DNA of 64,000 nt from the NCBI RefSeq assembly GCF_025370785.1, contig NZ_JAMXFA010000001.1, positions 171,902 through 235,901 on the forward strand, written 5' to 3'. A model generated the notes under the pieces. It saw nothing but the letters and a program-made list of their open reading frames with translations. It did not search any database and was not told the DNA's origin. The stretch's first letter is position 1, and each line of letters opens with the position of its first letter. The position numbers and the translations under genes were made by a program. Shown here piece after piece: positions 11,001 to 34,328 of the stretch. The stretch comes from Laspinema olomoucense D3b (GTDB lineage: Bacteria; Cyanobacteriota; Cyanobacteriia; Cyanobacteriales; Laspinemataceae).

Positions 11001-11273
11001 TTGGGAATGTTGCCTCTGGCGTTAGGCATGGGGGAAGGGGGGGAATTTTTACAACCCTTGGGGGTGGTGGTGTTCTCTGGGTTATCCTTAGCGACGGTTC
11101 TAACGTTGTTTATTATTCCCTGTTTTTATACCTTGCTTCATGACATCTTCGGGGGCCGACGTCCGCCTTTAAGTCCGGATCAACTGGAAACGGTGTTCCA
11201 GGAGTCTCCCGATTTGGACAATGTGCCATCTCCTTCTGGGGTGGACTGGCGCGGTCCTGAACCGGGGGTTTAA
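8031..11273 (+). CDS. RND efflux transporter permease (AcrB/AcrD/AcrF family)
   Basis: 1080 aa protein with 12 TM segments and two large periplasmic loops. It has the conserved AcrB-family motifs GxxVDxAIVMxE and VxNAILMVEF, and sits directly downstream of the adaptor gene. Confidence 0.9.
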   Translation: MNGFSISATAIRQHIGTLALTTTAIVLGVFFLTSIQVDLLPAITYPRIGLRLDAPGISPEVAIEEITKPLEEALSTTEGVVQVYSQTREGRVSVDLFFEPGGNVDLALNEATAAFNRAQGRLPEVVDSPRLFKVDPSQSPVYEFALQSASLQDVDLRVFADEELARELGVVPGVAAVDVSGGITEEIQVRIDPVRLQSFGLGLTQVLNELRDRNIDVAGGRLSGGSEEPLTRARGRFESAEEIANLSFEIPNQGRVYLRDFADIIDGTAERLVRVTLNGEPAVKVSIQKQPDANTITAVEGVKQRLEQLRQSGLIPPDMEIYPTLDESVFIRNSISNVVVSGLTGAGLAALAVFLFLGSIRQTVIIVLSIPLATLSSIALMQMFGLSLNVFSLGGLALGVGIVVDNAIVMLETIAEGVGMTPGKSQQNQRLTSSKAIAQAEASSRSIESALLASTTTNLVSVLPFLLIGGLFSLLFSELILTISFAVASSLLVALTVVPMLTSRLLAIPYTSGLSQFFLLRAFNAGFNGFTRLYQWILKWVLRLRVIVIALAIIVLGSGSFWLAGGLPQEILPEINTGQARLFAQFPPNTTLAQNLKIMAKVDEILLAQPETLNAFTTAGGFLFGTSVSPNPLRGSSTVTLKPGTDIDAFITRASAEFEKLNLVDARLRMSPESVRGIILTNSPVRAELDVTLQGTDVQALEQAGKEVLAALDEQATLASFRPDADSQQTELQIRPDWVRASEYGLSVNDIGAAIQTAIQGAVPTQLQRGDRLVDIRVTLPDNMVQRVSQLEQLPLLVGNNRSIRLQDIATVERGQAPGEIQRINQRQVFIIGGSLTEGATLGQANAEIAEVLAGIDFPPGVSVVPSSSAQTNQELQDSLKLLGGLASFLVFVVMAVQYNSLIDPLVIMLTVPLALAGGIVGLYVTETPVGATVLVGAILLVGIVVNNAILMVEFANQIYKEEGINRRQAILKAAPQRLRPILMTTITTVLGMLPLALGMGEGGEFLQPLGVVVFSGLSLATVLTLFIIPCFYTLLHDIFGGRRPPLSPDQLETVFQESPDLDNVPSPSGVDWRGPEPGV

Positions 11274-16911: not shown

Positions 16912-17147
16912 AGCATCAGGGTTTGAGTTGAAAATCTCCGTCTGATCACATCCGGTTCCCTCCTCTATGTCTTGGGGAGGGCGATCGGTTTCTACAACCT
17001 GACTTAAGGGGGTTGGGGTGAACAAACTGGTATTTTGCAAGAGAACGACAGCAAGTCGGGATGGTGAACTTAAGAAAAGGACGGAAATCGTTACTACCGA
17101 CTTAAGAAAAAACTGAAATTTAGGTGTTATTAGTTGTAATCGGGATA

Positions 17148-19503: not shown

Positions 19504-21009
19504 TTACCCGATCCGACTCTTTGGGTTCACTTTAGCCAACAGGGTTTGGGACCGCCAGAATAATGCTCTGCCGAGCCTTTTAAAGAAGAGAGTTCCATGC
19601 TTTTTGAGCCAATAAATGCCCCAAGGGCTGAAGGCGAGTTGGACTGCATAAGCTAACTGAGATTGCCTCAATTTTTGAGCGTTTAGAAAGGTCGAAATCG
19701 CTTGGAGGTCTTCTAGGTCCTGTGGGGTTTTGCGTGCTTGCTTGAGCGCAATTACCGTGTCTAGGGAAGCAAATTTTAAACCGGCGTAGTAGAAGTAATG
19801 TTCTGGATTGAAAATGATATCGTCTTTTTGTAGTCCATTGGCGGGAAGTTGGGAGTTGTGACTGGAGGCGATCGCTAGTTGAGTAATCTGATCAAATCCT
19901 TTGTGCAGAACATCTAACTGATCGCAATCTCGGATTCCGTATGCTGCAAGTACAGCGCGATCGCTCAAACAAACCCACTCCGAATCAATCTGATTTTCTT
20001 CTAACTCTTGGCGATACTTGCTTAATTGCTCGTGAAAGCGGGAAGAGGGATTCAATTGAGTCCTATTTAAAAACCTGATACTGTTTTCGTTTAACAACAG
20101 TTCAGCCAATTCTAGGGTCTGCTCATGGGTTTGGGTGAGGTACACCGACTCAGTTTTGTAATCCCATAAGGCATTGAGCTTCTGTTTTGCTGCGATCGCC
20201 TCCTCTAACGTTTCCGATTCAAACACATAAACTCGGGTAATTCCTGAACGCGGGGGTTTCTTTTTTTGTGACCCAGTGATGAGAGCCAAATGATGCTTGA
20301 AATGAGCCATTCCTGACTTCCATAAAAAAACATCTTTTTGATAATAAATTCGGCCCTGGGCCTTCAAAATATCTTCAACTTCTTGAGATTTGCCCAGGAA
20401 TGAAGGTTCTATAATAACCAAATAAGTATTGGGCTTTAACCGACAATATTCTAAAGCCATTGCATCGGAAAATATTCCCTTAAATCCTCGGTCTTCAAAG
20501 TGGCGATAATCCAGGGGTATCGGAGGATTATTTTCGTCAATTTCTGTGGTTAATAAGGCTGCTATCTCGCAATTATATAACAGGCAAGCCACTGTGCGAT
20601 GCCCGCCATCCACCAGATAATCATTCACCATAGGGACCAAACCATTTATGGTATCAAACCCGGACTCTTTAATCGAATCTAAAACCCGGTTAAACTCTTC
20701 AATAAATGCGGTTTTTCCTTCTTTACCTGATCCATCTGGTTCTTTATATCCATTCATGGTCTTAACATTGTTACAGTAGAGTTTCAAGGCCCAATCGGAC
20801 TCTATGCCCAACTCGCGATATTTAGCATAGATATACTTAGCCATTAAATCAAACCGGTAATAATTAATGAGTTCTTTGGGGTCAACGATGGCTACGATAT
20901 TTTCATCGTGAATTTTAGTATGTCTAAGTGCCAGTATAGTCAGCTTCTGAGTGACTTCTGGGCCGACAATTTTTTGGGACTTGGGCGAAAGAGAATAAGA
21001 GCGCTTCAT
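19504..21009 (-). CDS. Hypothetical protein with ParB/Srx-like N-terminal domain (DGGHR motif), last gene of the EPS locus
   Basis: The likely start is MKRSYSL at 21009. The segment GLVPMVNDYLVDGGHRTVACLL matches the ParB N-terminal / sulfiredoxin-fold nucleotide-binding motif (GLLxPIxV...Y.LIxGxRRxxAxxL). The remaining ~330 aa have no recognisable domain. It is co-directional with, and immediately downstream of, wzx. Confidence 0.5.
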   Translation of the reverse strand: MKRSYSLSPKSQKIVGPEVTQKLTILALRHTKIHDENIVAIVDPKELINYYRFDLMAKYIYAKYRELGIESDWALKLYCNNVKTMNGYKEPDGSGKEGKTAFIEEFNRVLDSIKESGFDTINGLVPMVNDYLVDGGHRTVACLLYNCEIAALLTTEIDENNPPIPLDYRHFEDRGFKGIFSDAMALEYCRLKPNTYLVIIEPSFLGKSQEVEDILKAQGRIYYQKDVFLWKSGMAHFKHHLALITGSQKKKPPRSGITRVYVFESETLEEAIAAKQKLNALWDYKTESVYLTQTHEQTLELAELLLNENSIRFLNRTQLNPSSRFHEQLSKYRQELEENQIDSEWVCLSDRAVLAAYGIRDCDQLDVLHKGFDQITQLAIASSHNSQLPANGLQKDDIIFNPEHYFYYAGLKFASLDTVIALKQARKTPQDLEDLQAISTFLNAQKLRQSQLAYAVQLAFSPWGIYWLKKHGTLFFKRLGRALFWRSQTLLAKVNPKSRIG

Positions 21010-21028
21010 CGTTCTATATGGGTAAGGA

Positions 21029-22300
21029 TTATTTGAGGGCAACGGATAGGGAATCTTTTTTAAAGACTTTGGCGATCGCCCAGATTCCAAAGATTGGTAA
21101 AACCACCAACTGAGACAAAAGAACACCTGCCGCTACCGCCAGGATTCCCCAACGGACGCAAATCAATAACGTCAGACCAAAAATGCAGGTATAAATCAGA
21201 TTAAAGTAAAGGGTAATTTTAGTTTTTCCGACGGTATTGAGGAGGTCATTGGTAAAGATAGAAAAAGAAAAAGGCAGGACCGACAGGCAAATCAAAATTA
21301 AGATGGGAATTCCTTCTGTCCATTTTTCCCCAAATACCAATGGGACGTAAAATGGTGCTAAACCGGCCTGCAATGCAATAAATGGGATGATAATCGAAAA
21401 GGTCTTTTTCAGGCTGCTGAAATATCTAACTTTTAGCTGCTGGATATCATGCTTAACTTGACACAAGTAGGGAAACAAGGCAGTGGTGAAGGCATTAATC
21501 ACATTGCGACTAATTCCAAATCCGGCATTAAAAGCAAAATAATATAAGCCCAAGGCATCCATTCCCAACCCCCGGCCAATAATTAAGTAATCGATATTAT
21601 TCCGGACCTGCTGTAATAAACTTACCCCCAGTAAGTTTCCGCCAAAATGAACAATTTCTTTCCATCGATGTAGGCTGAAGGCTTGCGGGGGCCGCCAGGG
21701 GTGATATCGCCAAAGAACGATAATCCAGATGGGAGTCGTTAGAATCATGGGCCAAACTACGGCCCAGACTCCCATACCTAATAGGGCTAATATGACAGTG
21801 ATGGCGTTGGCAACCAGGGATTGTAAGACCTGACATAAGGCGGTAACTTTGAGGCGATTTTCTCGTTGAATTAATGCGCCATTAATCAGGTAAAAAGGCA
21901 TCATCAAGTAAATTAAAGCTGAGGCACAAATTGGCCAAACCAGTTCGGGGCTTCCGTAAAATACGCTAATCGGAAACGCTAACATGAGTAGTAGAACAAA
22001 AATGCCAAAGCATAACATCCAGTTCAGCCAATAAGAGGTATTGCTAATTACCAAGAGTTCCCCCTCTTCTGCCTGAATGATTTTCGCCCCGATTCCCTTT
22101 CTCAGGGTGAATACATTGGCGAATTCAACAACCGTAAAAATCACGGCGGTCAGTCCGTACTCGGTGGCAGTAAAGGTACGGGCCAGGGTGACCGTGGTCG
22201 CTAATCGAAAGATGCGATTAAATAATTCTGCACCCCCCATCCAGCCAACATTTTGAATAAATTGGCCGGAAAAGATCTGCTTGATTTTCTGAGTTAACAT
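21029..22300 (-). CDS. wzx: Polysaccharide flippase (Wzx / MOP-family oligosaccharide translocase)
   Basis: 423 aa protein with about 12 TM segments and the polysacc_synt-type N-terminus (FIQNVGWMGGAELFNRIFRLATTVTLARTF). It is embedded in the glycosyltransferase cluster. Confidence 0.75.
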   Translation of the reverse strand: MLTQKIKQIFSGQFIQNVGWMGGAELFNRIFRLATTVTLARTFTATEYGLTAVIFTVVEFANVFTLRKGIGAKIIQAEEGELLVISNTSYWLNWMLCFGIFVLLLMLAFPISVFYGSPELVWPICASALIYLMMPFYLINGALIQRENRLKVTALCQVLQSLVANAITVILALLGMGVWAVVWPMILTTPIWIIVLWRYHPWRPPQAFSLHRWKEIVHFGGNLLGVSLLQQVRNNIDYLIIGRGLGMDALGLYYFAFNAGFGISRNVINAFTTALFPYLCQVKHDIQQLKVRYFSSLKKTFSIIIPFIALQAGLAPFYVPLVFGEKWTEGIPILILICLSVLPFSFSIFTNDLLNTVGKTKITLYFNLIYTCIFGLTLLICVRWGILAVAAGVLLSQLVVLPIFGIWAIAKVFKKDSLSVALK

Positions 22301-22371
22301 AACAACATTAATTCCCTGGGTACGCTTTGACTGAGTTGGCAGCTAGAAAATCATCTCATTTTAATGCCGAT

Positions 22372-23373
22372 TCATGAAGGTTTATTCCCAGGCTGTAACC
22401 GGGGATCTGGGATAGAGAGGCTTTTTCGGATGGAGTGAAACAGATAATTAGCCAGGGGTTTAGGCAAGAGTTTTTTAATCAATAATTTGACCAATATTTT
22501 TTGGAAAGTCCGATCGCCAATAATCAGGCTGGGTTGCAAGGCGATCGCAGCTTTCACGTGTTTTTGGGCTTTCACCATCGCATCCCTATCTTGACTGCGT
22601 TGTAAGTAAAGTTCAGCACAATATTTATGAAAATTGGTGAAAGTCAGCGTTTTGAGATGTTGCAATTCTGGCGGTGCAGCTTTATAAGCTTTCTCCATAG
22701 CAATTAACGCTTCTCGTTCCATCACTTCAACCTTAGATGACATCGATCCAGGCATCCGCCGATAAAAAATTTGGCATTTTTTAACAACCACAAAAGGCCA
22801 TTTAGCGGCCAATCTGAGCCAATAGTCCCAATCGGCACAACCCGCACAGGTTTGGTCAAATTCACCCACCGATGCGATAGCTTCTCGCCGCATTAAGGTA
22901 TTAGATCCACTATGAATAAAATCCTGAACTAATAAATTTTTATAAACGTTTCCCGTCCATTGATATTCCAAGGAAGGAAGAAAGGTGGGAGGGGTCTGGC
23001 TATCAGTTATATCCATAAAACAAGTCCAACTATAAGCAACTCCTGCCTCTGGATGCTCCTGGAGGGCAGTATATTGTTTCTCTAACTTATCTAATGTCCA
23101 TAAATCATCCGCATCCAGAAACGCAATCAATTCTCCTTTTGCTAGGAAAATTCCCCGATTACGGGCAACACAAACTCCGCCGTTAGGATAGCTGATTACC
23201 CGGACCCGGGAATCAGAAATGCTCTCCACGACGGTTTGAGTATTATCCTGAGATCCATCATTAATGACTAACAGTTCAAAGTCTGTAAATGTTTGCTTTA
23301 AAACTGAATCAATTGTCTCTAAAATCGTGGCTTCGGCATTGTAGGCGGGGATAATTACAGAAATTTTAGGCAT
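22372..23373 (-). CDS. Glycosyltransferase family 2
   Basis: N-terminal GT-A signature ISVIIPAYNAE...LLVINDGSQD...DADD. Confidence 0.9.
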   Translation of the reverse strand: MPKISVIIPAYNAEATILETIDSVLKQTFTDFELLVINDGSQDNTQTVVESISDSRVRVISYPNGGVCVARNRGIFLAKGELIAFLDADDLWTLDKLEKQYTALQEHPEAGVAYSWTCFMDITDSQTPPTFLPSLEYQWTGNVYKNLLVQDFIHSGSNTLMRREAIASVGEFDQTCAGCADWDYWLRLAAKWPFVVVKKCQIFYRRMPGSMSSKVEVMEREALIAMEKAYKAAPPELQHLKTLTFTNFHKYCAELYLQRSQDRDAMVKAQKHVKAAIALQPSLIIGDRTFQKILVKLLIKKLLPKPLANYLFHSIRKSLSIPDPRLQPGNKPS

Positions 23374-23499
23374 CAGTTAACCTCTCAATCGATAGAATAG
23401 GGACTTGGAATCTGGCTCCCCTTCTCTTCGGGGAAAAGGGGCAAAGGGGATGAGGGCTGCTAAACGGTCGGATGCACCGCCGTGTAGAGAAAGTTTCCC

Positions 23500-24927
23500 T
23501 CAGAACAAGAGAGAAGATTGCTCCGGTTGTCCGACTTTGATTTCTGGAACAGCCGGGGGGCTTACAACATTGGGTAGAAGAGCCTCTCGGAGTTGCTTGC
23601 CAATGACTTCCGGTGAAAAACAACGCTCTACGCGACGGCGAGCGCGATCGCCTAACTCTCGACTCCATGCGGGATCATCTAACAACCGTCCCAGGGCGAT
23701 CGCCAATGCCGCAGCATCCCCGCGAGGCACAATTATGCCGCCGGAGTCTTCCCCTCCTTCCAAAATATCCGCAATCCCTGACGCATCCGCAGCAACGAGG
23801 GGAAGGCTACAAGCCATTGCCTCAATGGGAGCAACAGGAAAGCCTTCTTGACGGGAGGGGAAGGCATAAATATTCGCGGCAGACAGGTATCGTTGAATCA
23901 CTGTGCGATCGCAGACAAACTGGTTTAACCACTGGATTCCCCGCAGTGACATCCCTTCAATCCGTTCCTGAAAAACGTCTGCCTCTGTACCCGTACCGAC
24001 GATCAGCAGGCGTAAATCCCGATCCGGGCGATCGCTACAGATTTGTTGCCACGCCTCTAACAAAATATCTAATCCTTTGTCTTGTATGTCTATTCGTCCA
24101 TGCCAGACGACTACCTCAGCATTCACCGGAATCCCCAAGCTATTTCGCGCTGCCGTTTGATCTTGGCGTTGCCATGCGGCGACATTTAAAGGGTTAAAAA
24201 TTCGGGCAATTTTGGATGCAGAAATGCCATACTGATGACGAATCCGCGCCGCTTCCGTTTGGCTGGCAACAATCACACCGGCACAGCTATGTAACGCCAG
24301 ATATCGTCCCGGAACTTCTATCAAACTCTTCGTGCGATCGCTCCCCTGGAAGGTGGCATAAGTCGGCAACCCCATCCACTTTCCTAACAACACCGAACTA
24401 TCAAACCGGGCATACTCATACTCTTGGCATAAAATAGCTTGACAATTCTCCTTGCGTAATTCTTTCGCCAGCAAATCCAGGGGGGTAGATAGATAACTGC
24501 CTCCGCTTTGTACCAAATTTTTCAAAACGCTCACGAAGGACTTCCGCACAGAATTGCTATCCTGAAAATTTTTAAAGGTTTCCCCCTCTTGAACCCCATA
24601 GCCTCGCAACAATTTTAAGCGGATCCGGCGATAAACATTATAAATCGGCCAAGGGGGTAAGACACAGATTTGAGTCCCGGTGGGCTGGTGAATAAAGCGA
24701 CAGGGTTTCTCAACTTGAGCGGAAATACAAAATAAGATAGTTCGGACTCCCACCCGGTTCAGGGCATCCACATAACCAAACATCCAACTTCCGACAAATT
24801 CTTGACAAAAGGTTTCTAAAGAAATATTGAGACTGTGTAAAAAGTCATCAATTAAGTCGGCGTAAGGAAGTAAGGCGATCGTAGGCTTTCCATGAGATTC
24901 TAAGGGTTCGGAGGATGGTATATTCAC
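23500..24927 (-). CDS. Glycosyltransferase family 1 (GT4-like, GT-B fold)
   Basis: C-terminal GT1 motifs (FPSRQEGFPVAPIEAMACSLPLVAADASG, an E-x7-E region). Confidence 0.8.
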   Translation of the reverse strand: MNIPSSEPLESHGKPTIALLPYADLIDDFLHSLNISLETFCQEFVGSWMFGYVDALNRVGVRTILFCISAQVEKPCRFIHQPTGTQICVLPPWPIYNVYRRIRLKLLRGYGVQEGETFKNFQDSNSVRKSFVSVLKNLVQSGGSYLSTPLDLLAKELRKENCQAILCQEYEYARFDSSVLLGKWMGLPTYATFQGSDRTKSLIEVPGRYLALHSCAGVIVASQTEAARIRHQYGISASKIARIFNPLNVAAWQRQDQTAARNSLGIPVNAEVVVWHGRIDIQDKGLDILLEAWQQICSDRPDRDLRLLIVGTGTEADVFQERIEGMSLRGIQWLNQFVCDRTVIQRYLSAANIYAFPSRQEGFPVAPIEAMACSLPLVAADASGIADILEGGEDSGGIIVPRGDAAALAIALGRLLDDPAWSRELGDRARRRVERCFSPEVIGKQLREALLPNVVSPPAVPEIKVGQPEQSSLLF

Positions 24928-24995
24928 GATGGTTAGTTGAGTTTATTTTCTAATGGCTTGAGGCTTATTACCCAGGAGGAGTAATCATTGAGGGT

Positions 24996-26129
24996 TTAGG
25001 AGCCGCAAACCCTGCAAGCCGTCGGTTCCCCTAAAGGAGGGGCTAACGGACGACGCGGGGTTCCCCCACCCCCGATGCTACTGGGGGAATTATTTTTTAC
25101 GATCGCCAGGGCTTGAAATAACTGATTTACATCATCGAAGAAATCCCCGGAAGTGCCGCCAAATGTATATCCATAGGTCGCCAGAAATTCTTCTTTAACA
25201 CCGTTTTCGATGGCGATATTATGGGTATCAATCGCCGTATCGTCTACAATATAACCTCCATAATCTTGAAGGGCCTCGAACAATTTTTTCCCCGGAATAG
25301 TTTTTAGTCCCAGACTTTCTGCGGTAACATCTGGGGGAATGGCAAGCAATGCACCCATGACTAAATCGGGATTGGAACCCCCATACCGGGAACGGCTATC
25401 GGGATTAAAAGCATAAGCATCAGCCCGAATCGCAGGCCATCGATAGCCCGGGGGATTATTATAGAGATATTTATGAGCGTAAATTAATAACTTTAAGGCA
25501 TGGCGAAGGGGAGGCGCTTCGGGTAGCAGTTCTCCCAGGCGAATGGTCCCGCCAATGCTTGATAATCCGGACCCCCCTTGTCCTCCAGTGATTCCCGGTC
25601 CATAAATATCCTCTTGGCCCGGGGTTGGATGTCCGAATACTGGGCCCCCGGCTTCGCACCGAGTGAGAGGATTCATTTGAATCAATGTTCGCCCATCTGG
25701 GGCTAAAAAGGCAGCAGCATTATTGGGGGTTTTGGTGGGGGTCGCGTCGGATAGAATTAAATTGTGCGGAACGTGAATTTCTCCGAGTAATTCTCCTCCC
25801 AGTTCGCAACGCCCCGGCCCCCAATTTAGGGGAAGATACCAAGGAACAACGGGGTCGCTATCGGTGGTGACAATGTAGTAGTTCACTTCGGCTGAAACCC
25901 AGGGTGATGGACCAATTTCCGCTGGAATATATTCCGCTTGGGACCCAATTGGCCGATTCCAAATGCTATCGCAGGAAAAGGGCCATTGATGTTTATTTCG
26001 GGGCCTACCGGGACCGCAGGCGTTACTATAGCCGTTACTATTTGCAAACAGGAGAGTTAGGCTCGTCACAGTTGCCCCCAGCAGCATGATTAATAAATAA
26101 ATAATTTGCCTTTTTTGGTTCATCCCCAC
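24996..26129 (-). CDS. Secreted/anchored hypothetical protein, Gly-rich, within the EPS locus
   Basis: An N-terminal hydrophobic anchor (IIYLLIMLLGATVTSLTLLFA) is followed by Gly-rich segments (GPGITGGQGGSGLSSIGG) and a GGGGTPRRP tail. No catalytic motif is recognised. It lies between the GT2 and GT1 genes on the same strand. Confidence 0.5.
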   Translation of the reverse strand: MGMNQKRQIIYLLIMLLGATVTSLTLLFANSNGYSNACGPGRPRNKHQWPFSCDSIWNRPIGSQAEYIPAEIGPSPWVSAEVNYYIVTTDSDPVVPWYLPLNWGPGRCELGGELLGEIHVPHNLILSDATPTKTPNNAAAFLAPDGRTLIQMNPLTRCEAGGPVFGHPTPGQEDIYGPGITGGQGGSGLSSIGGTIRLGELLPEAPPLRHALKLLIYAHKYLYNNPPGYRWPAIRADAYAFNPDSRSRYGGSNPDLVMGALLAIPPDVTAESLGLKTIPGKKLFEALQDYGGYIVDDTAIDTHNIAIENGVKEEFLATYGYTFGGTSGDFFDDVNQLFQALAIVKNNSPSSIGGGGTPRRPLAPPLGEPTACRVCGS

Positions 26130-26380
26130 TTTTCGGAATCTTGTGATTAATTAAGATTAATATTTTCCATAATTGCAGTTTTGAGGAGTTCTTAGCTAAC
26201 TTTTTTCTTTTTTGGGACCATCTCCTGAAAGGCCCGAAGACCTGACATCACCCCCCTGCCCTCCTCCCCAAGACACAGGGGAGGGGGGTGAACTATTCTA
26301 AATTGAGATGCTCCCACTTTTTTCAGCATTTCCTAAAAAAATAACCGCAGGATTGAAAAGCATAAAAAACTGATTTGTGG

Positions 26381-27346
26381 TTAGTTTAATTGTAGCTTGA
26401 CGCGACGGCGCAGGGTATGAAAGAAGCGCAAAAATTTGTTGTAGTTTTCTGGTCCTAGTCCGGCCATTAAGGCGATCGCAATCCGCAGACGCAGATACTC
26501 TCGCTCCCAACGCACTTTAGGGTCGTGGGTAACCGCTTGAGTGGCAAAATCCAGGGCTTTTTTGTAATCTTTTTGAACGCTTTGTAAGGGTTTCCAGGCC
26601 AAACAAAGATGGGTTCGGGCATAGCTGCATCCCTTAAGATGTTGGTAACGGCTAGGGGCCGCAGCAAAGGCTTTTTCAATCACCAGGCTATAACTTTGTT
26701 CCATTGCGGCCCAATTTCGGGAAGCACTCTGGGAATGTTGCCGGTAATAAACTAGGGGTTCGGATATGGCTTTAAAAGGATAGTGTAAGGCAATTCGCAA
26801 CCACATATCCCAGTCTTCTACAAATGAGCGTAAATTAACATCGAATACGCCACAGGTTTCAAAACACTGGCGACGCACCATTGCCCCACTGCCACTCTCC
26901 ACAATATTCTGAAGGATTAGATGCTCCCAAACATTGCCTTCCTGGGAATTTTTAAACAGTCTTCCCGTGGGGATGCCATGTTCATTGATGAGTGCTACCC
27001 AGCTATAAACTAACCCCACATCTGGATTATTATCAAGACATTCTACCTGTTTTTGGAGTTTAGTAGGATGCCATAAATCATCCGCATCTAAAAAAGCTAA
27101 GTATTCTCCCGTTGCCGCTTCAATTCCGGTATTTCTGGCTCCGGACAAGCCTTTATTAACTTGAGAAATCAGTTTAATCCGAGGGTCAGTTTGTTGAGAA
27201 ACCCATGCTTCCGTGTGGTCGGTACTGCCATCATTAATGATAATTGCCTCAAAATCGGAGTAGGTTTGAGCCAGCAGACTCTGGAGGGTTTCCGGCAGAT
27301 AGGTCATGGAATTATAAGCGGGAATAATCACTGATACTTTAGGCAT
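26381..27346 (-). CDS. Glycosyltransferase family 2
   Basis: GT-A signature VSVIIPAYNS...AIIINDGSTD...DADD. Confidence 0.9.
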   Translation of the reverse strand: MPKVSVIIPAYNSMTYLPETLQSLLAQTYSDFEAIIINDGSTDHTEAWVSQQTDPRIKLISQVNKGLSGARNTGIEAATGEYLAFLDADDLWHPTKLQKQVECLDNNPDVGLVYSWVALINEHGIPTGRLFKNSQEGNVWEHLILQNIVESGSGAMVRRQCFETCGVFDVNLRSFVEDWDMWLRIALHYPFKAISEPLVYYRQHSQSASRNWAAMEQSYSLVIEKAFAAAPSRYQHLKGCSYARTHLCLAWKPLQSVQKDYKKALDFATQAVTHDPKVRWEREYLRLRIAIALMAGLGPENYNKFLRFFHTLRRRVKLQLN

Positions 27347-27358
27347 GAAAATAGTCTC

Positions 27359-28846
27359 CTAGGAAAAATAAACGGGATGAGGCTTGGGGGAAAGAGTCGG
27401 ACTAGGAACTAAGGAATTTGGCGATCGCTTCTCGTCCCAATCCCAACCGGCAATGGCAACCATAGTCCACCAGTATAAAAATAGGCTGGTATGAGTCCAG
27501 ATATTCTCGGTGATCATTCCCACCGGAATCGAGAGCCAAATTGCTAACAAAGTGAAGCAAAAATTGCGCTGAGCCGTCCCCGCAGGAGCAGCTCGAATGA
27601 GCCAAATGAGGCGGGCGATTGTGCTCAGCAACAACAACAAAAAGAAGACAAACCCCACCACTCCGCCTTCCACAAGAGCGCGAACGTAATCGTTATGAGG
27701 CTCCAGACCATTGGCACTAATATATTTGTTGGTCCCGAGCCCAAATCCCAATAAAGGATAATCCTGCCATTGTTTAATTAAATAAGTCCATTGGGCTAAA
27801 CGCCAATTGAAGCTATTCCCATCTCCTTGGGCGAGGAGAATTGCCCGCCACAGCTCCATATCTGGATTTCCGAGGGGGGTTTCTCCCAGGGAACCCAGGC
27901 GTTCCTGGCCAAATTCGGTACTCCCAAATAAAGCAATAATTAATCCAAAGCCCACGATTCCACCCAGCAAACTCGGCAGACTCAATTTTGGGGCAATTAA
28001 GGCCAAAATTAAAGTAGCCAGCATCATTAAGCCGAATAGAGACTTGGTATTCACGAACAAAAACGCGATCACCGCCAGGGCGATCGCCCAGGGCCATCTA
28101 GGGTTAGACTCCTGCTGTTTCCAATAGGTTAATCCCAGGAATAGCACCAGGAAGGTGGTAAAGGTATTGGGATGACCTAGGGTCCCATTAATTCGAGAAC
28201 CGGCTTCAAAGGGCAGACCATCAGTATTACCGGATCCATATACCAACATCGGAGGAAGGACGGAAGGGGGTAAGGCGAGTTGTAATATAGCCACAAAAGC
28301 AGGTATAACTAAGCCTAGAAACAGACAAGCGATCGCCTGTTGGGGAGTCACCCGGCCCTTAAGCTGCATCACTAACAAGTAAATCATCACCCAGGAAAAA
28401 AGCCGCACCCATTCCCGAATCGCTGAGGGTAAAAATGAGCCATCGAATCCCAAACCGCCCAGAGGGAGGAGGATGACCCATAGCCCTTGGATCACCAACC
28501 ATGCCAGAAGGAACCACCAGAAACCATCCACCTGTAAGGGTTGGTGAATCAGTAGCCGGACCAGGACATAAAGTAACGTCAGGGCAATCATGGCAAGTGC
28601 CCAGAGTGCGGGCATTTGTTGTGCGGAAAATACATCCAGGGAGGTCCGCACAATCAATAAACCCAGAATGGATACCTCGAAATAGGTAAAAAAGCAATAC
28701 AGGCCCCCGGCAGCAACAAAGGGTAAAGCCAGTAAAATGGGTTGAATGATGCCGATCGCCGTCCCCATTGCTCCAAGGACTACCCCCACCAGGGTTCCGA
28801 AAACCGTTAGATACAAACCAATCGGGGGGAATTTAGGACTTGCCAT
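27359..28846 (-). CDS. wzy: O-antigen ligase / Wzy-type polysaccharide polymerase family membrane protein
   Basis: 495 aa polytopic membrane protein with the Wzy_C-type conserved loop (GLEPHNDYVRALVEGG). Confidence 0.7.
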   Translation of the reverse strand: MASPKFPPIGLYLTVFGTLVGVVLGAMGTAIGIIQPILLALPFVAAGGLYCFFTYFEVSILGLLIVRTSLDVFSAQQMPALWALAMIALTLLYVLVRLLIHQPLQVDGFWWFLLAWLVIQGLWVILLPLGGLGFDGSFLPSAIREWVRLFSWVMIYLLVMQLKGRVTPQQAIACLFLGLVIPAFVAILQLALPPSVLPPMLVYGSGNTDGLPFEAGSRINGTLGHPNTFTTFLVLFLGLTYWKQQESNPRWPWAIALAVIAFLFVNTKSLFGLMMLATLILALIAPKLSLPSLLGGIVGFGLIIALFGSTEFGQERLGSLGETPLGNPDMELWRAILLAQGDGNSFNWRLAQWTYLIKQWQDYPLLGFGLGTNKYISANGLEPHNDYVRALVEGGVVGFVFFLLLLLSTIARLIWLIRAAPAGTAQRNFCFTLLAIWLSIPVGMITENIWTHTSLFLYWWTMVAIAGWDWDEKRSPNSLVPSPTLSPKPHPVYFS

Positions 28847-31085
28847 TTTTTAACCCTTTGGAGACAATTGCGGGGGTCTCTGGTTTCCAGGAGGTGAGAT
28901 GGAGTTCCTTCGGGGCCTGATTTTTCACGGGGTAAGTGGGGCTTACAGATTGGGCAACCGCCTTTTGATAGGATTTTTCGGTTTTCGCACTCATCTGATC
29001 GATGGCAAATCCCAACAGGGGGATCCCATTGGTTTGTAAATAGGCGATGGATTTGACTAAGAGTGATTTTTGGGTAAATTCGGGTCGGACGATCGCCACC
29101 AATCCCTGACTATGTTGACTCAAAGCATGGGCATCGGCGCAGTCAATTAACGGCGGTGTATCTACAATTACCACGTCATACAGGGAGGCGGCTTCTAGCA
29201 ACAGGGCTTGCATCCCCGGAGATTCTAAAAACCCTGCCGGACGCGCTTTCTGAAGCCCACAACTCAGGACCCACAGATTTTCAATCACTGTGGGTTGGAC
29301 TATTTCTACTAAGCTTATGGCATGGGTGAGAGCATCGGTGAGCCCCGGTTGGGCTGCCACTCCACAAAGTTGGTGCTGACTCGGTTGATGGAGGTCCGCA
29401 TCGATAATTAAAGTTCGCCGAGACAGCATGGCAGAAACTGCCCCTAAGTGGGCCGCTACTACCGATTTTCCTTCCCCAGCAACGGTGCTGCTGACGACTA
29501 TCGGGCGTAGGTTATTTTGGGTCCGAAACTCTAAGGTTTTCAGGAGGAGGCGGTAGGGCTCCACTAACTTGGGGTTGTCTAAAAACTGGTCCGGGTTCGT
29601 TAGGGCGATCGCCTCCGGTGAGATGTCGGGCAGAATGCCCAACAGGGGGAGATTTAGCAGTCCTTCGACTTCCCAGCTTTCGTTCACCCGGGGGTCAATC
29701 AGTTCTAGCAGCAGCATCACGGAGATTCCCAGGACGGTTCCAGCGGCGATCGCGAGGACTAAAATAACTTTCTTTTGAGGAGCACTGGGCAAAAGCGGGA
29801 TCGTTCCTTTTTCCATGATCCGCAGGTTGCTCACCAGTTGCGCTTCTGCCATCCGCGCTTCTGCCAGCTTGTTTTGTAAAAATTTTAAAGACTCGATCGC
29901 CTCGTCTCGCTCTCGCATCAGGGCCGAAAGTTGTTGTTCTTTGATGGGAAGGCGATCCAGTTCCATTTGCAGGCCGATCCGCTGCGATCGCAACCCCTGT
30001 AGCCTTTTTTCCAGTCCCCCTCGGTCCGTTTCAGCCATGATTAATTGGCCGGTGATCTCTTGGCTGAGGGGGTCGTTGGATTCTGTGGCGACTGCCCCCG
30101 GGCTGCCTTGAGCATTGGGAATTTTTGCTTTCTGGGTTTCGTACTGCGCTCGCACTTTGTCCTGTTCTTGCCGCAGCAATTGTACCGCTGGATGTTGCTC
30201 TGTAAATCGAGCGCCTGTCTGAATCAGTTCCGCTTCAATTTCACTGAGGCGATCGCGTAACTTTTGCAGACTTTCATCTTGTCCAATTCTTCCTTGGGCA
30301 TAAGCCTGGGGAATATTCTCAAAGCTTCCGATTTCCTGGATACTTTCCAGTCGTTTTTGTGCTTCTTCCAGTTCAGCAACTGCCACACTTTCTTGCTCTT
30401 GAATGCTCCCAATCGTATCCAGCAGACTTTTGGTCTGTGCCTCCACTGCCACTAAACCACTCTCTTCGCGATACTGGTTTAAGGCCATCTCTGCCGCTTC
30501 TGCGATCGCCCGCTGTTCTGGAAGCGCTGACTCTAAAAAGTCTCGAATCGCTTTGGCCTCTACTTGAATCGCTTCCCGGCTTTTTTCAACCGTAATCTCT
30601 AATAAACTATTAACCAGATTCATCGCGATTTCCGGGTCCTCATCTTGATAGCTGAGTTCCAGGATATTCGTTGCTGGAATTAGTTTAATTTTTAAGCCTT
30701 TTTTAAATAGGGTTAAGGGGGGTAACGCTTCGACATTTTCCAGATTATGTTCTAATTTGACCCGCTCTAGGGCAGCCGTAAGCAATCCCGGAGATTTAAT
30801 CAGTTCCGATTGAGTGGCTAGGGGGCTTGATCCTCCAGGAGTATGACTGGAAAGCTGGGAAAGGTTACGGCCTAGTTCGGAAAGACTCACCTGTTTTTCA
30901 TCTAAAATCAAGCGTCCTTTGACTTCATAAACCGGGGGGGTCAACACTAAATAAGCGATCGCCACGGCGATCGCCGACACCAAGGTTGCTAATGCCGGTA
31001 CACTCCGTCGCCGCAAAACTGACAGTAACATTGTAAGGCTTTTGTCCATGACACCCAAATTTACCGAGTCATTATTTCCAGTCAT
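28833..31085 (-). CDS. wzc: Polysaccharide co-polymerase / BY-kinase (Wzc, GumC-like chain-length determinant with C-terminal tyrosine kinase domain)
   Basis: An N-terminal TM segment is followed by a long coiled-coil periplasmic region and a second TM. The C-terminal P-loop ATPase has Walker A (STVAGEGKS) and Walker B (LIIDAD). The gene overlaps wzy by 14 bp. Confidence 0.8.
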   Translation of the reverse strand: MTGNNDSVNLGVMDKSLTMLLSVLRRRSVPALATLVSAIAVAIAYLVLTPPVYEVKGRLILDEKQVSLSELGRNLSQLSSHTPGGSSPLATQSELIKSPGLLTAALERVKLEHNLENVEALPPLTLFKKGLKIKLIPATNILELSYQDEDPEIAMNLVNSLLEITVEKSREAIQVEAKAIRDFLESALPEQRAIAEAAEMALNQYREESGLVAVEAQTKSLLDTIGSIQEQESVAVAELEEAQKRLESIQEIGSFENIPQAYAQGRIGQDESLQKLRDRLSEIEAELIQTGARFTEQHPAVQLLRQEQDKVRAQYETQKAKIPNAQGSPGAVATESNDPLSQEITGQLIMAETDRGGLEKRLQGLRSQRIGLQMELDRLPIKEQQLSALMRERDEAIESLKFLQNKLAEARMAEAQLVSNLRIMEKGTIPLLPSAPQKKVILVLAIAAGTVLGISVMLLLELIDPRVNESWEVEGLLNLPLLGILPDISPEAIALTNPDQFLDNPKLVEPYRLLLKTLEFRTQNNLRPIVVSSTVAGEGKSVVAAHLGAVSAMLSRRTLIIDADLHQPSQHQLCGVAAQPGLTDALTHAISLVEIVQPTVIENLWVLSCGLQKARPAGFLESPGMQALLLEAASLYDVVIVDTPPLIDCADAHALSQHSQGLVAIVRPEFTQKSLLVKSIAYLQTNGIPLLGFAIDQMSAKTEKSYQKAVAQSVSPTYPVKNQAPKELHLTSWKPETPAIVSKGLKNGKS

Positions 31086-31646
31086 TCTATCGAGTCATTA
31101 TAATTATTTCCCTCGACCTTGCTGTCGAGCTGGGCACTCTGTGACTCTATCTGCTTTACCTATCCATCTAATCATTAAACACTCTATTGACTGCTAGTAT
31201 TTGACCCCGGACACCGGCCCCTCCTGTAGTGAGCAAACCTGATCCAGAAAACTCACGCCAAGGCTTAAACAAATCATCGGGCAAAAACTAAGTTTACCTC
31301 AAAATAGACCCGGTTCATTTGAGGACTGAATTCTCCTCATTATAAGCTTTATGTTTTGTTTTTTTAGTTCTTTATTAAAAATTCATACAGTGAGTCTAAT
31401 CTCCTGACCTAGGGGTACTCAACCCTGGGACATAATCAGGGTTTACCGATGGTGTTCCCTCCCCGGGGCGTTTGACCCTAGATTGTCGGGTTTTTTCCGT
31501 CCCTGGGCCAATCCACCCTTATAAAAAGGCCCAATTTTTATAGACTTTACCTACAATATCCGTGATTGAGGGTTATGGAGGGGCAATCCTCTGGCTGTAC
31601 CCCATGAGCTTGCCAAAGGGTTACCCCTGCTTCCAGTCTCCGGGGG

Positions 31647-33032
31647 TCAGTCCGGATATGATACAAGCACTCCCTCTTCACGACGGGTAGACAGGGGAGG
31701 CACTTCGGCGGTTACGTTCGTTAAAGGCAGCTCCCTGAGCAGCTCAACTCCATTCCATTTGGGCTTCTGAGCCAGTTGCTCTGTTCCGTTTGCGACCGGC
31801 ACTCTCTTTAACGGCTCCATTGTTCTGAGTTTCTTGCTAATCTTCGCATACAGGGATAAATTCTCGAAGCCAATCCGATCCCAGCTATGGTTCTGTTTAA
31901 CGTAGTCATGCGCCCGCGAAGCCATTTCGGTGAGTTGTTCCCGTTGGGAGAGGGCCTGATTGAGCCTTTGGATGCAGGATTCCAGATCGCCCGCTTCAAA
32001 CAGTAATCCCCGGTCCTCTCCAATCAGTTGCCGATGGGGGGGGATGTTACTCGCTAGGACGGGAATTTTTTCCCGCATGGCTTCTAGCATCACCAGGGGC
32101 AAGCCTTCCACATCGGAGGGGAGTACAAACAGTCCGGCACCGCGAACAATCTGAGCTACAGACTCACCGTGAATTTCCCCGGTAAAGGTAATCTGGGGAT
32201 TTCCCTGGCTAATTTGGACTAACTCCTCCCGAAAGCCAGGGGTATCGCTGACTCCCCCGGCTAAGACGAGCTTCCATCCCGGGGGTTGCAGTTTGGTAAA
32301 GGCTTTGAGGAGGAGATCCGGACGCTTTTCCGGAACCAACCGGCCTAGGAACAAAATGTAACGCTGGGGTTCTAAGCCCAAGGTGGTCAAATAGGGTAAG
32401 GTGGGGTCAGATTCGTGATAGGTGGCCGGAGCCGTGGGAATGTAGCTGGTTTCGATGCCATAGGTTTTCCAAAAGTAAGTTTGCAGTTCTTTGGAAACCA
32501 CCACGATTTCATCAGCAAAACTGACGGCGGCTCTTTCCCCGCGATAGATAATCTCACTAGAAAGTTTGCCCCACTTCCTGCGCTGCCAGTCCAGTCCGTG
32601 ACAGGTGACTACAACTTTTGCCGATCGGGTCAGTTTGGGCAGCCAGCAAAAGATGGCAGGGCCGAGGGCGTGAAAATGCACTACATCATAAGTGTTCAGG
32701 ATGGAGGCGATCGCCCCCAATCCAGAAGCAAAGAAGGCATCCACTCCTTTTAAGGGAATGGAAGGCAAGGAGATCACGCGCACTCCCTTATAGTGATAGG
32801 TTTCAAAGTTAGAACCTTGGGTATAGCTCTGGCGAGCGAACAAATCTACTGTATGACCTTGCTCAACCATTCCCGGATACATTTCTTCGCAGTAACGCTC
32901 AATGCCACCTTGAAGAGCTGGTAAACCTTTGGCACCAACAACAGCTATTTTCATGGGTTTCAATCGTTGAGGAGTAAATGAAGTGAGTTGGAGGCTGAAA
33001 AATTTTGCGTAAATTGCACCGAGCTTTAGCAC
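31647..33032 (-). CDS. Glycosyltransferase family 1
   Basis: GT-B fold with C-terminal motifs (LPSDVEGLPLVMLEAMREKIPVLASN). Confidence 0.8.
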   Translation of the reverse strand: MLKLGAIYAKFFSLQLTSFTPQRLKPMKIAVVGAKGLPALQGGIERYCEEMYPGMVEQGHTVDLFARQSYTQGSNFETYHYKGVRVISLPSIPLKGVDAFFASGLGAIASILNTYDVVHFHALGPAIFCWLPKLTRSAKVVVTCHGLDWQRRKWGKLSSEIIYRGERAAVSFADEIVVVSKELQTYFWKTYGIETSYIPTAPATYHESDPTLPYLTTLGLEPQRYILFLGRLVPEKRPDLLLKAFTKLQPPGWKLVLAGGVSDTPGFREELVQISQGNPQITFTGEIHGESVAQIVRGAGLFVLPSDVEGLPLVMLEAMREKIPVLASNIPPHRQLIGEDRGLLFEAGDLESCIQRLNQALSQREQLTEMASRAHDYVKQNHSWDRIGFENLSLYAKISKKLRTMEPLKRVPVANGTEQLAQKPKWNGVELLRELPLTNVTAEVPPLSTRREEGVLVSYPD

Positions 33033-33101
33033 TGAAATAAAATGCAGTGCTAATCCCTTAGAATTACGCTGACAATTGCCGTTTGGGAGTTGGTTTTGAT
33101 A

Positions 33102-34328
33102 TCAACTGGGGTAGGGGGAAGAGATGGCGATCGCCTTGCGGTACTGCCAACGGTGCAGCATTTGGCGATAGACTTCCTGGACTATACTGGGTGCGCTATA
33201 GGGTTGAACGGTTCGTACACAAGCTTCTGAAGAATACAGGTCCGGATTCGCCAGGACTCGCCGCAAGGCATCGGCGATCGCCTCTGCTGTTCTTTCTTTG
33301 CAGACTACCCCACTATCGGGTGAGAGCAGTTTAGGAGTTTCACCACAGTCTGTTGTCACCACAGGAGTGCCGCAGGCAAGGGCTTCGAGAACGGTGACGG
33401 GTAAGCCTTCATAAACACTACTGAGCAAAAAGGCACTGGCTGCGCGATACAGTTGAGCCAATCGGTCCGAGTTGACAGCACCGAGGAGGGTAACGCGATC
33501 GCCCAAGTTCAACGCTTGGATCTCACGTCGCACCTGTTCCTCTAACTCTCCGGCTCCAGCAATTAGCAAATGGACTTGGGGATCAGCCAAGGCGGCGATC
33601 GCCTGAATCCCTAATACCGGGTCTTTTTGCGGATGCAATCGTCCCGCAAATAATAGGAATCGCACCGTTTCGGGTAACCCCAGCTCTTGAGCCAGTTCCC
33701 GGCGTTTGATTTCCCGTTCTTCCCGCTTATCGGGATAGAAACTCTCGGGATCAAATCCATTTTTTAAGAAAGCCACCCTTGGCGCTAATTCCGGATAGGC
33801 TTCCCGATAATGCTGCGCGGACTCGCTATTACAGGAATACACCTGCTCGAATTGGCTAATCAGTAACTTTTCTAACGCAAAATATACTTTCGGAAACTGT
33901 TGCCATAGAATCGCTTTCCCCCCCAAGTTGCGATCCATTTGCTTGCGAATATCGTTGTGAATAAAAAGGGTTTTATCTCCCGCCCAATTTAGACTGGCTA
34001 AAGTGGGTTCTATTCTATGAAAGTGCATAAAATCTGAGGCAAAATTATGCCGCATTAAGGAGGCTCCGTAGGCAATAGTCGTCGGAATCAACTTCCGGAC
34101 ATTATCCTCGCCTACTGCAATCACCGGCATGAATTGAATCGCTTTTCCGGCATATTCCGTCCATTTCCATACCCCCAAGGCAGATCCCGGCGCTCCGGTC
34201 CCTACTACCCTTACCACAAATTCATCGGGAGCATATTTAATAAAAGAACGAATAACCGTCTGAATACCACCAATACTGCTATCCCACGGATTAAATTGAT
34301 AAAAAATTGTCAGAACTGGCTTGCTCAT
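33102..34328 (-). CDS. Glycosyltransferase family 1 (GT4-like)
   Basis: GT-B fold motifs (LSSVYEGLPVTVLEALACGTPVVTTDCGE). It is the first gene of the same-strand EPS cluster. Confidence 0.8.
   Translation of the reverse strand: MSKPVLTIFYQFNPWDSSIGGIQTVIRSFIKYAPDEFVVRVVGTGAPGSALGVWKWTEYAGKAIQFMPVIAVGEDNVRKLIPTTIAYGASLMRHNFASDFMHFHRIEPTLASLNWAGDKTLFIHNDIRKQMDRNLGGKAILWQQFPKVYFALEKLLISQFEQVYSCNSESAQHYREAYPELAPRVAFLKNGFDPESFYPDKREEREIKRRELAQELGLPETVRFLLFAGRLHPQKDPVLGIQAIAALADPQVHLLIAGAGELEEQVRREIQALNLGDRVTLLGAVNSDRLAQLYRAASAFLLSSVYEGLPVTVLEALACGTPVVTTDCGETPKLLSPDSGVVCKERTAEAIADALRRVLANPDLYSSEACVRTVQPYSAPSIVQEVYRQMLHRWQYRKAIAISSPYPS

Follow-up and report, generated by a model that had tools for sequence, protein, structure and literature searches.

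The last gene of an exopolysaccharide (EPS) cluster in Laspinema olomoucense raises the question of what a protein with a ParB/sulfiredoxin (Srx)-like motif could contribute to polysaccharide biosynthesis. Within the window (the whole stretch of 64,000 nucleotides that was analyzed), the target gene (19504..21009, minus strand, stop codon at 19504-19506) encodes a protein of 501 amino acids (WP_261234128.1). It is located directly downstream of the gene for a Wzx-type flippase (21029..22300, minus strand; PF13440, E 1.9e-55, and PF01943), with a gap of 19 nt between the TAA stop codon of wzx and the ATG of the target. Upstream of wzx, a co-directional EPS cluster (22372..34328, minus strand) encodes two GT4 glycosyltransferases (33102-34328 and 31647-33032), a Wzc-like PCP (28833-31085), Wzy (27359-28846), a GT2 (26381-27346), an unknown protein of 377 amino acids (24996-26129), another GT4 (23500-24927) and another GT2 (22372-23373), in that order, so that wzx and the target complete a cluster of ten genes of the Wzx/Wzy type. 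Because wzx lies upstream on the same strand and the downstream neighbor is a convergent rarA/mgsA-like gene, the target is the terminal gene of the cluster, as the earlier note had stated. This arrangement is also found in four orthologous Oscillatoriales loci.

The start codon is the ATG at 21009, which gives the same N-terminus as in orthologs that are 81-87% identical; a GTG at 21126, which would lengthen the protein, was rejected because it overlaps wzx by 98 nt and the N-termini of the orthologs do not support it. The reading frame is intact in five genomes and under purifying selection throughout. With dN/dS values of 0.22-0.33 in comparison with four orthologs, and below 0.6 for each domain, the gene is evidently functional, judging from its substitution pattern.

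The large, unnamed family to which the protein belongs comprises at least 3,658 clusters at 50% identity (E ≤ 1e-3; 1,600 clusters at E ≤ 1e-30), with full-length HMM matches beyond the genus at E-values as low as 1e-125, and is spread among Cyanobacteria, Bacillota, Proteobacteria, Bacteroidota, Chlamydiae and DPANN archaea; its hosts include Tenacibaculum, Vibrio fujianensis, Campylobacter concisus and Arcobacter. The synteny with polysaccharide genes in other genomes on which the earlier note had staked its proposal is borne out: all six annotated contexts of homologs are glycan loci, and 79 of 83 genome loci, from more than ten phyla, contain GT, flippase, PGT or ABC-2 neighbors or a fused family protein (counted at 560 amino acids or longer). 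The kinds of loci represented are O-antigen, capsule, EPS and flagellin-glycosylation clusters. The fusion proteins that were sampled bear GT2, GT10, FkbM, Methyltransf_24, sulfotransferase and TPR domains, of which the FkbM methyltransferase domain is the commonest partner (42 of 191 representatives). The sulfotransferases of some relatives are separate neighboring or fused domains, which speaks against a sulfotransferase function of the module itself, and no sulfotransferase gene is present in the window cluster or its flanks.

No meaningful match to the protein or its relatives was obtained from Pfam, NCBIfam, PADLOC or PHROGs, and even at E ≤ 1 neither the window protein nor a set of 38 relatives matched Pfam; HMMER searches of PDB sequences gave chance matches only, whether the query was the protein itself, a profile of the full family or a profile of one of its domains. 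The named relatives are all "hypothetical", and the UniProt name of the window protein ("ParB/Sulfiredoxin domain-containing") is presumably drawn from a signature other than PF02195. Having no match to PF02195 at E ≤ 1, the family lies outside the PF02195-based survey of the fold published in 2025, the supplements of which contain no GT or FkbM fusions. Literature searches on ParB/sulfiredoxin with polysaccharide or glycosyltransferase, on NDK-like domains with NTase and O-antigen, and on Laspinema EPS found nothing on the family.

The most familiar proteins of the ParB/Srx fold are DNA partition proteins and ParB-like nucleases (matches to 5k5d, 8qa8 and 1vz0), and the gene product could in principle be a partition protein, nuclease or DNA-modification accessory encoded beside the EPS operon by chance, or else a functionless, decaying remnant. 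The canonical ParB CTPase clamps (Spo0J, KorB and PadC; PF02195), however, possess a helix-turn-helix (HTH), a dimerization domain, ParA/parS and a DNA context, whereas the domains of the window protein past its N-terminal domain are similar to nucleoside diphosphate kinase (NDK) and nucleotidyltransferase (NTase), with neither an HTH nor a C-terminal dimerization domain. There is no parS or mobile-element context and no ParA-type partition gene in the neighborhood, the sole ParA-like match being the kinase domain of Wzc. By tblastn, phages gave no match and plasmids only three, all "hypothetical", and no defense-system model of PADLOC was matched. The glycan context across phyla and the physical fusions to glycosyltransferases and methyltransferases argue further against a role in DNA metabolism, as do the intact frame and the purifying selection against decay; this extremely improbable explanation is effectively refuted already.

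According to the predicted structure (full model, pLDDT 88.8, pTM 0.89), the family is built of three domains, all encoded on the minus strand. The N-terminal domain (20434..20907, approximately residues 35-192), which carries the putative nucleotide site called site A here, consists of a ParB/Srx-like core (beta-alpha with strand-GxxR-helix) that is superimposable on solved members of the fold, and a family-specific helical insertion. The middle domain (20044..20433, approximately residues 193-322) has an NDK-like alpha/beta fold, and the C-terminal domain (19666..20043, approximately residues 323-448) has a small Pol-beta-type NTase-like fold, that of the minimal NTase domain. The fold and the genomic context described in the earlier note stand, but its architecture was incomplete, as the remaining ~330 residues that it considered unassignable belong largely to the NDK-like and NTase-like domains. 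The match to the ParB/Srx fold is at the level of fold only, not by Pfam ParBc, NCBIfam or PDB sequence.

The protein ends in a W/F/L-rich helical tail with a net charge of +11 (19507..19665, minus strand, residues 449-501; helices predicted at 451-499, pLDDT 66-83), a putative membrane- or partner-binding segment. Comparable basic tails are present in all stand-alone relatives without an N-terminal hydrophobic segment. The amphipathic moment of the C-terminal tails is no higher than that of shuffled controls, so that the suggestion of membrane binding derives from charge and composition only. About one fifth of the stand-alone type I relatives have N-terminal signal-like or anchor-like segments; should these proteins be exported, it would be difficult for them to maintain a reaction that depends on NTP. 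Hydrophobic N-terminal segments are present in members from Chlamydiae and Babeliales.

Sequence conservation points to two separable sites in the family: site A, the ParB/Srx pocket, and site B, formed by an NDK-like His and the DxD of the NTase-like domain. The window protein contains GLVPMVNDYLVDGGHRTVACLL, in which DGGHR (20596..20610, minus strand, residues 134-138) is the equivalent of Box II or the P-motif (GxxR) with its conserved Arg. Because G135 (99%), H137 (100%) and R138 (99%) are invariant or nearly so among 189 representatives, the match to the ParB/Srx signature, for which the earlier note had allowed coincidence, is not due to chance; hhalign also aligned DGGHR with the GGCHR of Srx (E 0.026; the Srx sequence was confirmed against PDB 1yzs) and with the GERR of Spo0J. 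A helix end and loop resembling Box I or the C-motif (LDSIKESGF, 20656..20682, minus strand, residues 110-118; S112 at least 85-90% and G117 94% conserved) was aligned weakly with ESVLQHGIL, the ParB Box I of Spo0J (E 0.25). The residues of site A (R52, D54, K58, Y78, H81, E90, K96, G135, H137, R138 and D182) are 95-100% conserved across all 189 representatives, although H81 (95% elsewhere) has been lost in the clade of the window protein, which has N at this position. Site A is predicted to be a nucleotide-phosphate pocket of the ParB/Srx type, made up of SIK..GF, DGxHR and D182 together with R52, K58, Y78 and K96.

Proteins of the ParB/Srx fold bind ATP, CTP or GTP via the GxxR arginine, and three of them, SerK, SbnI and Srx, are ATP/ADP-dependent phosphotransferases (PMC12704722, PMC5120207). 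Sulfiredoxin (6ky4, 1yzs) differs from the family in being a single-domain enzyme with peroxiredoxin as its substrate, and the catalytic Cys of its GGCHR is replaced by Gly136 in the window protein (G, A, S, E or L in the family), which excludes sulfinic-acid reductase chemistry. SerK (Thermococcus kodakarensis TK0378, 5x0b) and SbnI (5ujd) are free serine kinases without detectable sequence similarity to the family. They act on a free amino acid, in cysteine or siderophore metabolism, whereas the context of the family is glycan biosynthesis, and they lack the NDK-like domain, the NTase-like domain, the basic tail, and the insertion that carries the family-invariant R52, K58, Y78 and K96.

Site B, the NDK-like Tyr/Arg/His/Asp set plus the NTase DxD, is approximately 97-99% conserved in the 165 members with His at position 290, and all of it is variable in the 22 members with Tyr at this position, including the window protein. 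In type I members, D364 and D366 are each 97% conserved, and the conserved H/D/Y/R were aligned with NDK by hhalign at E 0.08-0.15, which is not significant alone; there is no similarity of the family to NDK at the level of HMMER. The window protein has A242, N279, Y290 and Q293 at the NDK-like catalytic positions, and so has neither the catalytic His of the NxxHGSD motif nor the Tyr and Arg that bind phosphate. Replacement of the His by Tyr, and of its Tyr/Arg/Asp partners by A/N/Q, excludes NDK-type phospho-His chemistry for this copy. The G-x-R...D-x-D motif of its NTase-like domain is degenerate (YGIRDCDQLDVLH, G358-I-R-D-C-D-Q364-L-D366, with Gln in place of the first Asp of the family), lacking the full set of metal-binding carboxylates of hG[GS]...DxD, and no sequence-level match was found to small Pol-beta-type nucleotidyltransferases (TM1012/2ewr, MenT, CitX). 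The replacements in site B (Y242A, R279N, H290Y, D293Q and D364Q), and K430Q in addition, are at positions that are at least 85% conserved in the family and 89-100% conserved in type I.

By its full-length HMM match, intact site A, Tyr at 290, variable residues at 242, 279, 293, 364 and 366, and glycan locus, the window protein fits type II, the "A-only" subgroup. Type II orthologs also occur in Bacillaceae such as Virgibacillus and Salipaludibacillus. Only its ParB/Srx-like pocket appears intact, and it is evidently an A-only variant maintained by purifying selection. No further family member able to provide site B is encoded within the window.

Having lost site B, the window protein could be a pseudoenzyme, that is, a nucleotide-gated regulator or scaffold in which a ParB-like NTP switch is attached to NDK-like and NTase-like shells that bind partners such as Wzx, Wzy, Wzc or a glycosyltransferase; it would tune the assembly or export of EPS without chemically altering the glycan. 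Such a role would agree with the six replacements and the change of H81 to N, with the position of the gene directly after that of the flippase, and with the C-terminal domain, which despite its broken DxD is under the strongest constraint of any domain (dN/dS 0.11-0.17 among close orthologs), as a binding surface would be; NTP switching is also the classical role of ParB-fold proteins (PMC12704722). Clamp-forming ParBs, however, have the dimerization or HTH modules that are missing here, and all putative catalytic acidic and basic residues of site A save H81 have been kept in the window protein, as they have been across phyla. The module is also found amid the catalytic domains of multi-enzyme polypeptides, and in two loci (L075 and L056) a paralog with site A dead and site B intact adjoins one with site A intact and site B dead, which looks like the division of two activities. 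A purely regulatory function is doubtful.

The best explanation, with a probability of roughly 40%, is that the target protein is a cytoplasmic accessory enzyme of the Wzx/Wzy-dependent exopolysaccharide pathway that uses site A for NTP-dependent phosphotransfer; by analogy with characterized members of the fold, a nucleotide-dependent modification of the phosphotransfer type is most likely what the lipid-linked repeat unit undergoes. Probably tethered to the membrane through the basic tail at its C-terminus, the enzyme would bind an NTP (ATP or CTP) at site A and, before Wzx flips the undecaprenyl-PP-linked repeat unit, attach a phosphoryl or phosphate-containing group to one of the sugars of this unit, while the non-catalytic NDK-like and NTase-like domains may serve as an acceptor-binding or structural scaffold. 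The reaction would resemble the phosphorylation of hydroxyl or sulfinate groups by SerK, SbnI and sulfiredoxin. Against this explanation, the locus showed neither a kinase-specific signature nor a gene for a phosphate-utilizing partner.

Alternatively, the pocket might bind a pre-activated donor (CDP-alcohol or NDP-sugar), from which a phospho-alcohol, in the manner of LicD or TagF, or a sugar would be added by what would then be a new transferase family of neither the GT-A nor the GT-B type. LicD/FKRP phosphotransferases are users of the Pol-beta-type NTase fold in glycan pathways, and the C-terminal domain is predicted to share this fold, but the NTase DxD needed by LicD-type chemistry is precisely what the window copy lacks. 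Bona fide GT2 and GT10 transferase modules can take the place of the module and are also fused to it, yet it matched no CAZy-type glycosyltransferase in sequence or fold. CTP, a cytidine nucleotide, is accepted by ParB-fold pockets (PMC12704722), but genes for the biosynthesis of a CDP-alcohol or special NDP-sugar (cytidylyltransferase, alcohol-phosphate dehydrogenase) are neither present in the window cluster nor recurrent among neighbors of the family, and transfer from such a donor is unlikely.

A broader proposal, put forward tentatively, is that the whole family consists of unrecognized two-active-site glycan modifiers, in which ParB/Srx phosphotransfer and a composite NDK phospho-His/NTase site would together install phosphate-containing decorations on the surface polysaccharides of bacteria and archaea, for example methyl-phosphate-type caps in conjunction with the often-fused FkbM methyltransferases. 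The Laspinema protein would then be a natural "half-site" version, limited to the step that depends on ParB/Srx and acting on the repeat unit of a Wzx/Wzy pathway. A possible functional analog of the family at large is the O-antigen chain terminator WbdD of E. coli O9a, a kinase and methyltransferase with a protein-kinase-like kinase domain and a C-terminal membrane-binding helix. The two are unrelated in fold, but WbdD joins a kinase to a methyltransferase and the commonest fusion partner of the family is the SAM-dependent FkbM methyltransferase; ABC-2 (Wzm/Wzt) loci, furthermore, often house type I members. The window protein, in contrast to WbdD, has no methyltransferase partner and belongs to a Wzx/Wzy locus instead of an ABC-transporter locus.

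If site A is catalytic, the target protein would be the first ParB/Srx-fold enzyme in polysaccharide biosynthesis, and thousands of "hypothetical proteins" would gain a name and a hypothesis; as a family missed by the PF02195-based census, they would widen the functional range of the fold. Variants that occur naturally with site A alone, site B alone or both, together with the many fusions, are separation-of-function material at hand, and hint at the source of unexplained non-carbohydrate substituents (phosphate, methyl phosphate) on surface glycans. A single origin of the Tyr-290 subgroup was tested with a rough NJ tree, in which this subgroup falls into several groups.

The gene at 19504-21009 (minus strand) starts with the ATG at 21009 and encodes a 501-residue protein with the same N-terminus as orthologues at 81-87% identity; an alternative GTG start at 21126 would run into the preceding gene, which encodes a Wzx-type flippase (21029-22300, minus strand; PF13440, E 1.9e-55). 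The earlier note had placed it after wzx, in the same orientation, as the terminal gene of an EPS operon, and the map of ORFs and Pfam matches bears this out, with 19 nt between the TAA stop of wzx and the ATG. Upstream of wzx on the same strand lie, in order, genes for a GT2, a GT4, an unknown 377-aa ORF, a GT2, Wzy, a Wzc-like PCP/tyrosine-kinase protein and two GT4 enzymes, and the 3' neighbour is a convergent rarA/mgsA-like gene; the gene under study is thus the last of a ten-gene Wzx/Wzy-type EPS cluster. No priming phosphoglycosyltransferase of the Bac_transf or WecA type is present in the cluster (19504-34328, minus strand), so the gene for the initiating enzyme must lie outside it or be one that escaped recognition.

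The protein has the same sequence as WP_261234128.1 from Laspinema olomoucense, labelled "hypothetical" by NCBI and "ParB/Sulfiredoxin domain-containing protein" by UniProt, so that the fold label was already known. Searches with Pfam, NCBIfam, PADLOC and PHROG models gave no match to it, 38 relatives likewise had no Pfam match, and a PDB sequence search with it returned no match. An AlphaFold2 model built from 38 homologues is confident (pLDDT 88.8, pTM 0.89) and predicts three globular domains followed by a helical tail. In an independent Foldseek comparison the whole model matches nucleoside diphosphate kinases (NDKs) first (prob 0.97-1.0), with no ParB/Srx protein among the best 60 matches, and residues 1-193 were therefore modelled alone (pLDDT 86.8). 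Matches to this N domain include SbnI, Atu1540 and the free serine kinase within the top 11, with Spo0J lower; in this model-based comparison, so clear an enrichment of the ParB/Srx fold in a set of 48,164 chains cannot be put down to chance. The DGGHR motif lies at 20596-20610, as reported previously, and hhalign pairs DGaHRvAAcL with GGCHRYAAYQ of Srx (E 0.026) and GERRFRAAKL of Spo0J, and LDSIK..GF with Spo0J Box I, the reference sequences having been checked against the PDB. Structure matches and motif alignments together support the fold call made from sequence, but the remaining ~330 residues, previously considered unassignable, comprise an NDK-like domain and a Pol-beta nucleotidyltransferase (NTase)-like domain.

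An exhaustive profile search recovered 3,658 clusters (50% identity) at E<=1e-3, and 1,600 family clusters at E<=1e-30. A scan of species-representative genomes found members in Cyanobacteria, Desulfobacterota, Verrucomicrobiota, Bacillota, Bacteroidota, Campylobacterota, Gamma- and Alphaproteobacteria, Chlamydiae, Dependentiae, Omnitrophota, CPR, and Pace- and Woesearchaeota. No function, family model or paper for the family was found in literature or databases; the 2025 census of the ParB-CTPase fold took PF02195 at its gathering threshold as entry, so that the family fell outside, and the supplements to that census contain neither GT nor FkbM fusions.

The family is associated with glycan biosynthesis. 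All six contexts with precomputed Pfam annotation, among them an eps operon of Virgibacillus and an island for flagellin glycosylation, are glycan loci. When neighbouring genes were clustered over 87 loci, with cluster labels checked on the annotated contexts, the neighbours were GT2-like (40 loci), GT4-like (26), epimerases (26), DegT aminotransferases (17), Bac_transf (15), Wzx (10), GT10-like (9), and FkbM and Methyltransf_24 methyltransferases (8+5 and 7). At 79 of the 83 loci where a family gene was called, either a neighbouring gene encodes a GT, flippase, PGT or ABC-2 protein or the family protein itself is 560 aa or longer; this supports synteny of homologues with polysaccharide genes. 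With dN/dS against four orthologues at 0.22-0.33 overall (0.11-0.17 in the C domain), the gene is not decaying. A DNA-related or non-functional protein is effectively excluded.

Among 191 representatives, 68 are at least 560 aa long and 42 carry an FkbM methyltransferase domain; other fused modules are GT2, GT10, Methyltransf_24, sulfotransferase and TPR, and the longest polypeptide reaches 4,050 aa. The giant polypeptides (1,600-4,050 aa; P0057, P0062, P0063, P0084, P0104 and P0152; loci L016-L018, L024 and L030), mostly from Desulfobacterota and Bacteroidota-type MAGs, combine FkbM, the family module, GT10, Methyltransf_24, several GT2 domains, TPR repeats and sometimes a sulfotransferase, and they look like single-chain glycan assembly lines. 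Sulfation by the family module itself is unlikely, because sulfotransferase domains are separate in relatives, either beside the module or fused to it, and none was found in the EPS cluster. Across the family, the frequent methyltransferase fusions bring to mind WbdD, a kinase-methyltransferase terminator of unrelated fold.

Across 189 representatives, the near-invariant residues fall into two groups: site A, within the N domain (R52, D54, K58, Y78, H81, E90, K96, G135, H137, R138, D182), and site B, formed by Y242, R279, H290 and D293 of the NDK-like domain and D364 and D366 of the NTase-like G-x-R-x3-D-x-D motif. A weak (E 0.08-0.15) but collinear profile alignment with NDK sets H290 on the catalytic histidine (HIND versus HGSD), Y242 on Y51 and R279 on R104. 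Residue 290 splits the family sharply: in the 165 type I members, defined by His-290, the Y/R/D/D/D partners are kept at 97-99%; in the 22 type II members, defined by Tyr-290, all five vary. Site A is intact in both types alike, and is selectively retained. The long fusions are without exception type I, and FkbM, MT24, GT10 and Wzm/Wzt are frequent in their loci. Type II takes in the target's Oscillatoriales orthologues, from Wzx loci, and proteins of Bacillaceae whose eps operons contain Bac_transf, PglD-like, DegT, GT4 and MsbA-like genes. The target, the only family member found in the window, is type II (A242, N279, Y290, Q293, Q364, D366) and also has H81N in site A.

Loci L075 (7251-8603, plus strand; 9783-11072, minus strand) and L056 (5234-6580 and 7860-9263, both plus strand) each encode two paralogues separated by one GT4-like gene, one with site A destroyed (e.g., DESHT or YSHL replacing DGxHR) and site B intact, the other reversed. 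These complementary defects are strong comparative evidence that A and B are separable functions, both needed in the same pathway; the pairs look like subfunctionalisation, possibly into a heterodimer.

In the ParB/Srx fold, the GxxR arginine and Box I contact NTP phosphates and base, and SerK, SbnI and Srx transfer phosphoryl groups through this pocket (PMC12704722, PMC5120207). The reading preferred here, at a probability of roughly 0.4, is that site A of the target takes up ATP or CTP and that, on the cytoplasmic side, a phosphate or phosphate-containing group would be added to the lipid-linked repeat unit ahead of its export by Wzx, with the NDK-like and NTase-like domains serving as acceptor-binding scaffold. 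In its working the protein would be most like ParB/Srx-fold phosphotransferases, but it has no match to PF02195 of ParB, no Srx cysteine and no sequence relationship to SerK or SbnI. It also lacks the NDK catalytic histidine and has an incomplete DxD of the Pol-beta-type NTases, and so belongs to none of these named families. An NTP-gated pseudoenzyme or scaffold, retaining the site A pocket, is a less probable alternative, and a transferase using a CDP- or NDP-activated donor is slightly less probable still. Phosphotransfer at site A would mean that glycan biosynthesis had recruited a nucleotide-dependent ParB/Srx-fold protein with a new three-domain architecture. The chemistry is hypothetical; the family itself, which has many members in a wide range of taxa and no annotation, offers natural separation-of-function variants.

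Stand-alone relatives take two forms, one with an N-terminal hydrophobic segment and no tail, the other, which includes the target, with no segment and a strongly basic (+7 to +16), hydrophobic-rich tail of 35-70 residues. Among stand-alone type I members, about one in five are of the signal- or anchor-like form (P0018, P0024, P0044, P0066 and others; loci L004, L005, L027, L029 and L074-L076), mainly from Chlamydiae, Babeliales/Dependentiae and unassigned MAGs. That relatives have one or the other suggests tethering; the tails have a helical hydrophobic moment no higher than that of shuffled controls, so that we only infer membrane binding. Export of the signal- or anchor-bearing members, if true, would make a nucleotide-dependent reaction puzzling.

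Within the EPS cluster, the 377-aa ORF (24996-26129, minus strand) has no Pfam match, and its orthologues in L008 and L010 have a signal-like hydrophobic start and are Gly/Pro-rich; the product, of unknown family, may be secreted and process EPS. The first GT4 gene is preceded by ~2.1 kb (34329-36475) in which neither strand has an ORF above 119 aa; this stretch may be a long leader or regulatory region of the EPS operon. G+C content is 0.41-0.44 over the target, wzx and GT2 genes (20001-23000) versus roughly 0.47-0.50 in most of the window, a contrast that would fit with the distal part of the cluster having been acquired laterally. A CBS-PAS-GAF-GGDEF diguanylate cyclase (12596-15058, minus strand), ~4.5 kb from the cluster end, is a candidate for feeding c-di-GMP signals into EPS production. 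The convergent RarA/MgsA AAA+ gene (17124-19370, plus strand) encodes 748 aa, of which the last ~308 (18444-19367), past MgsA_C, have no Pfam match, and in four related loci from Oscillatoriales this long form is likewise conserved beside the target gene.
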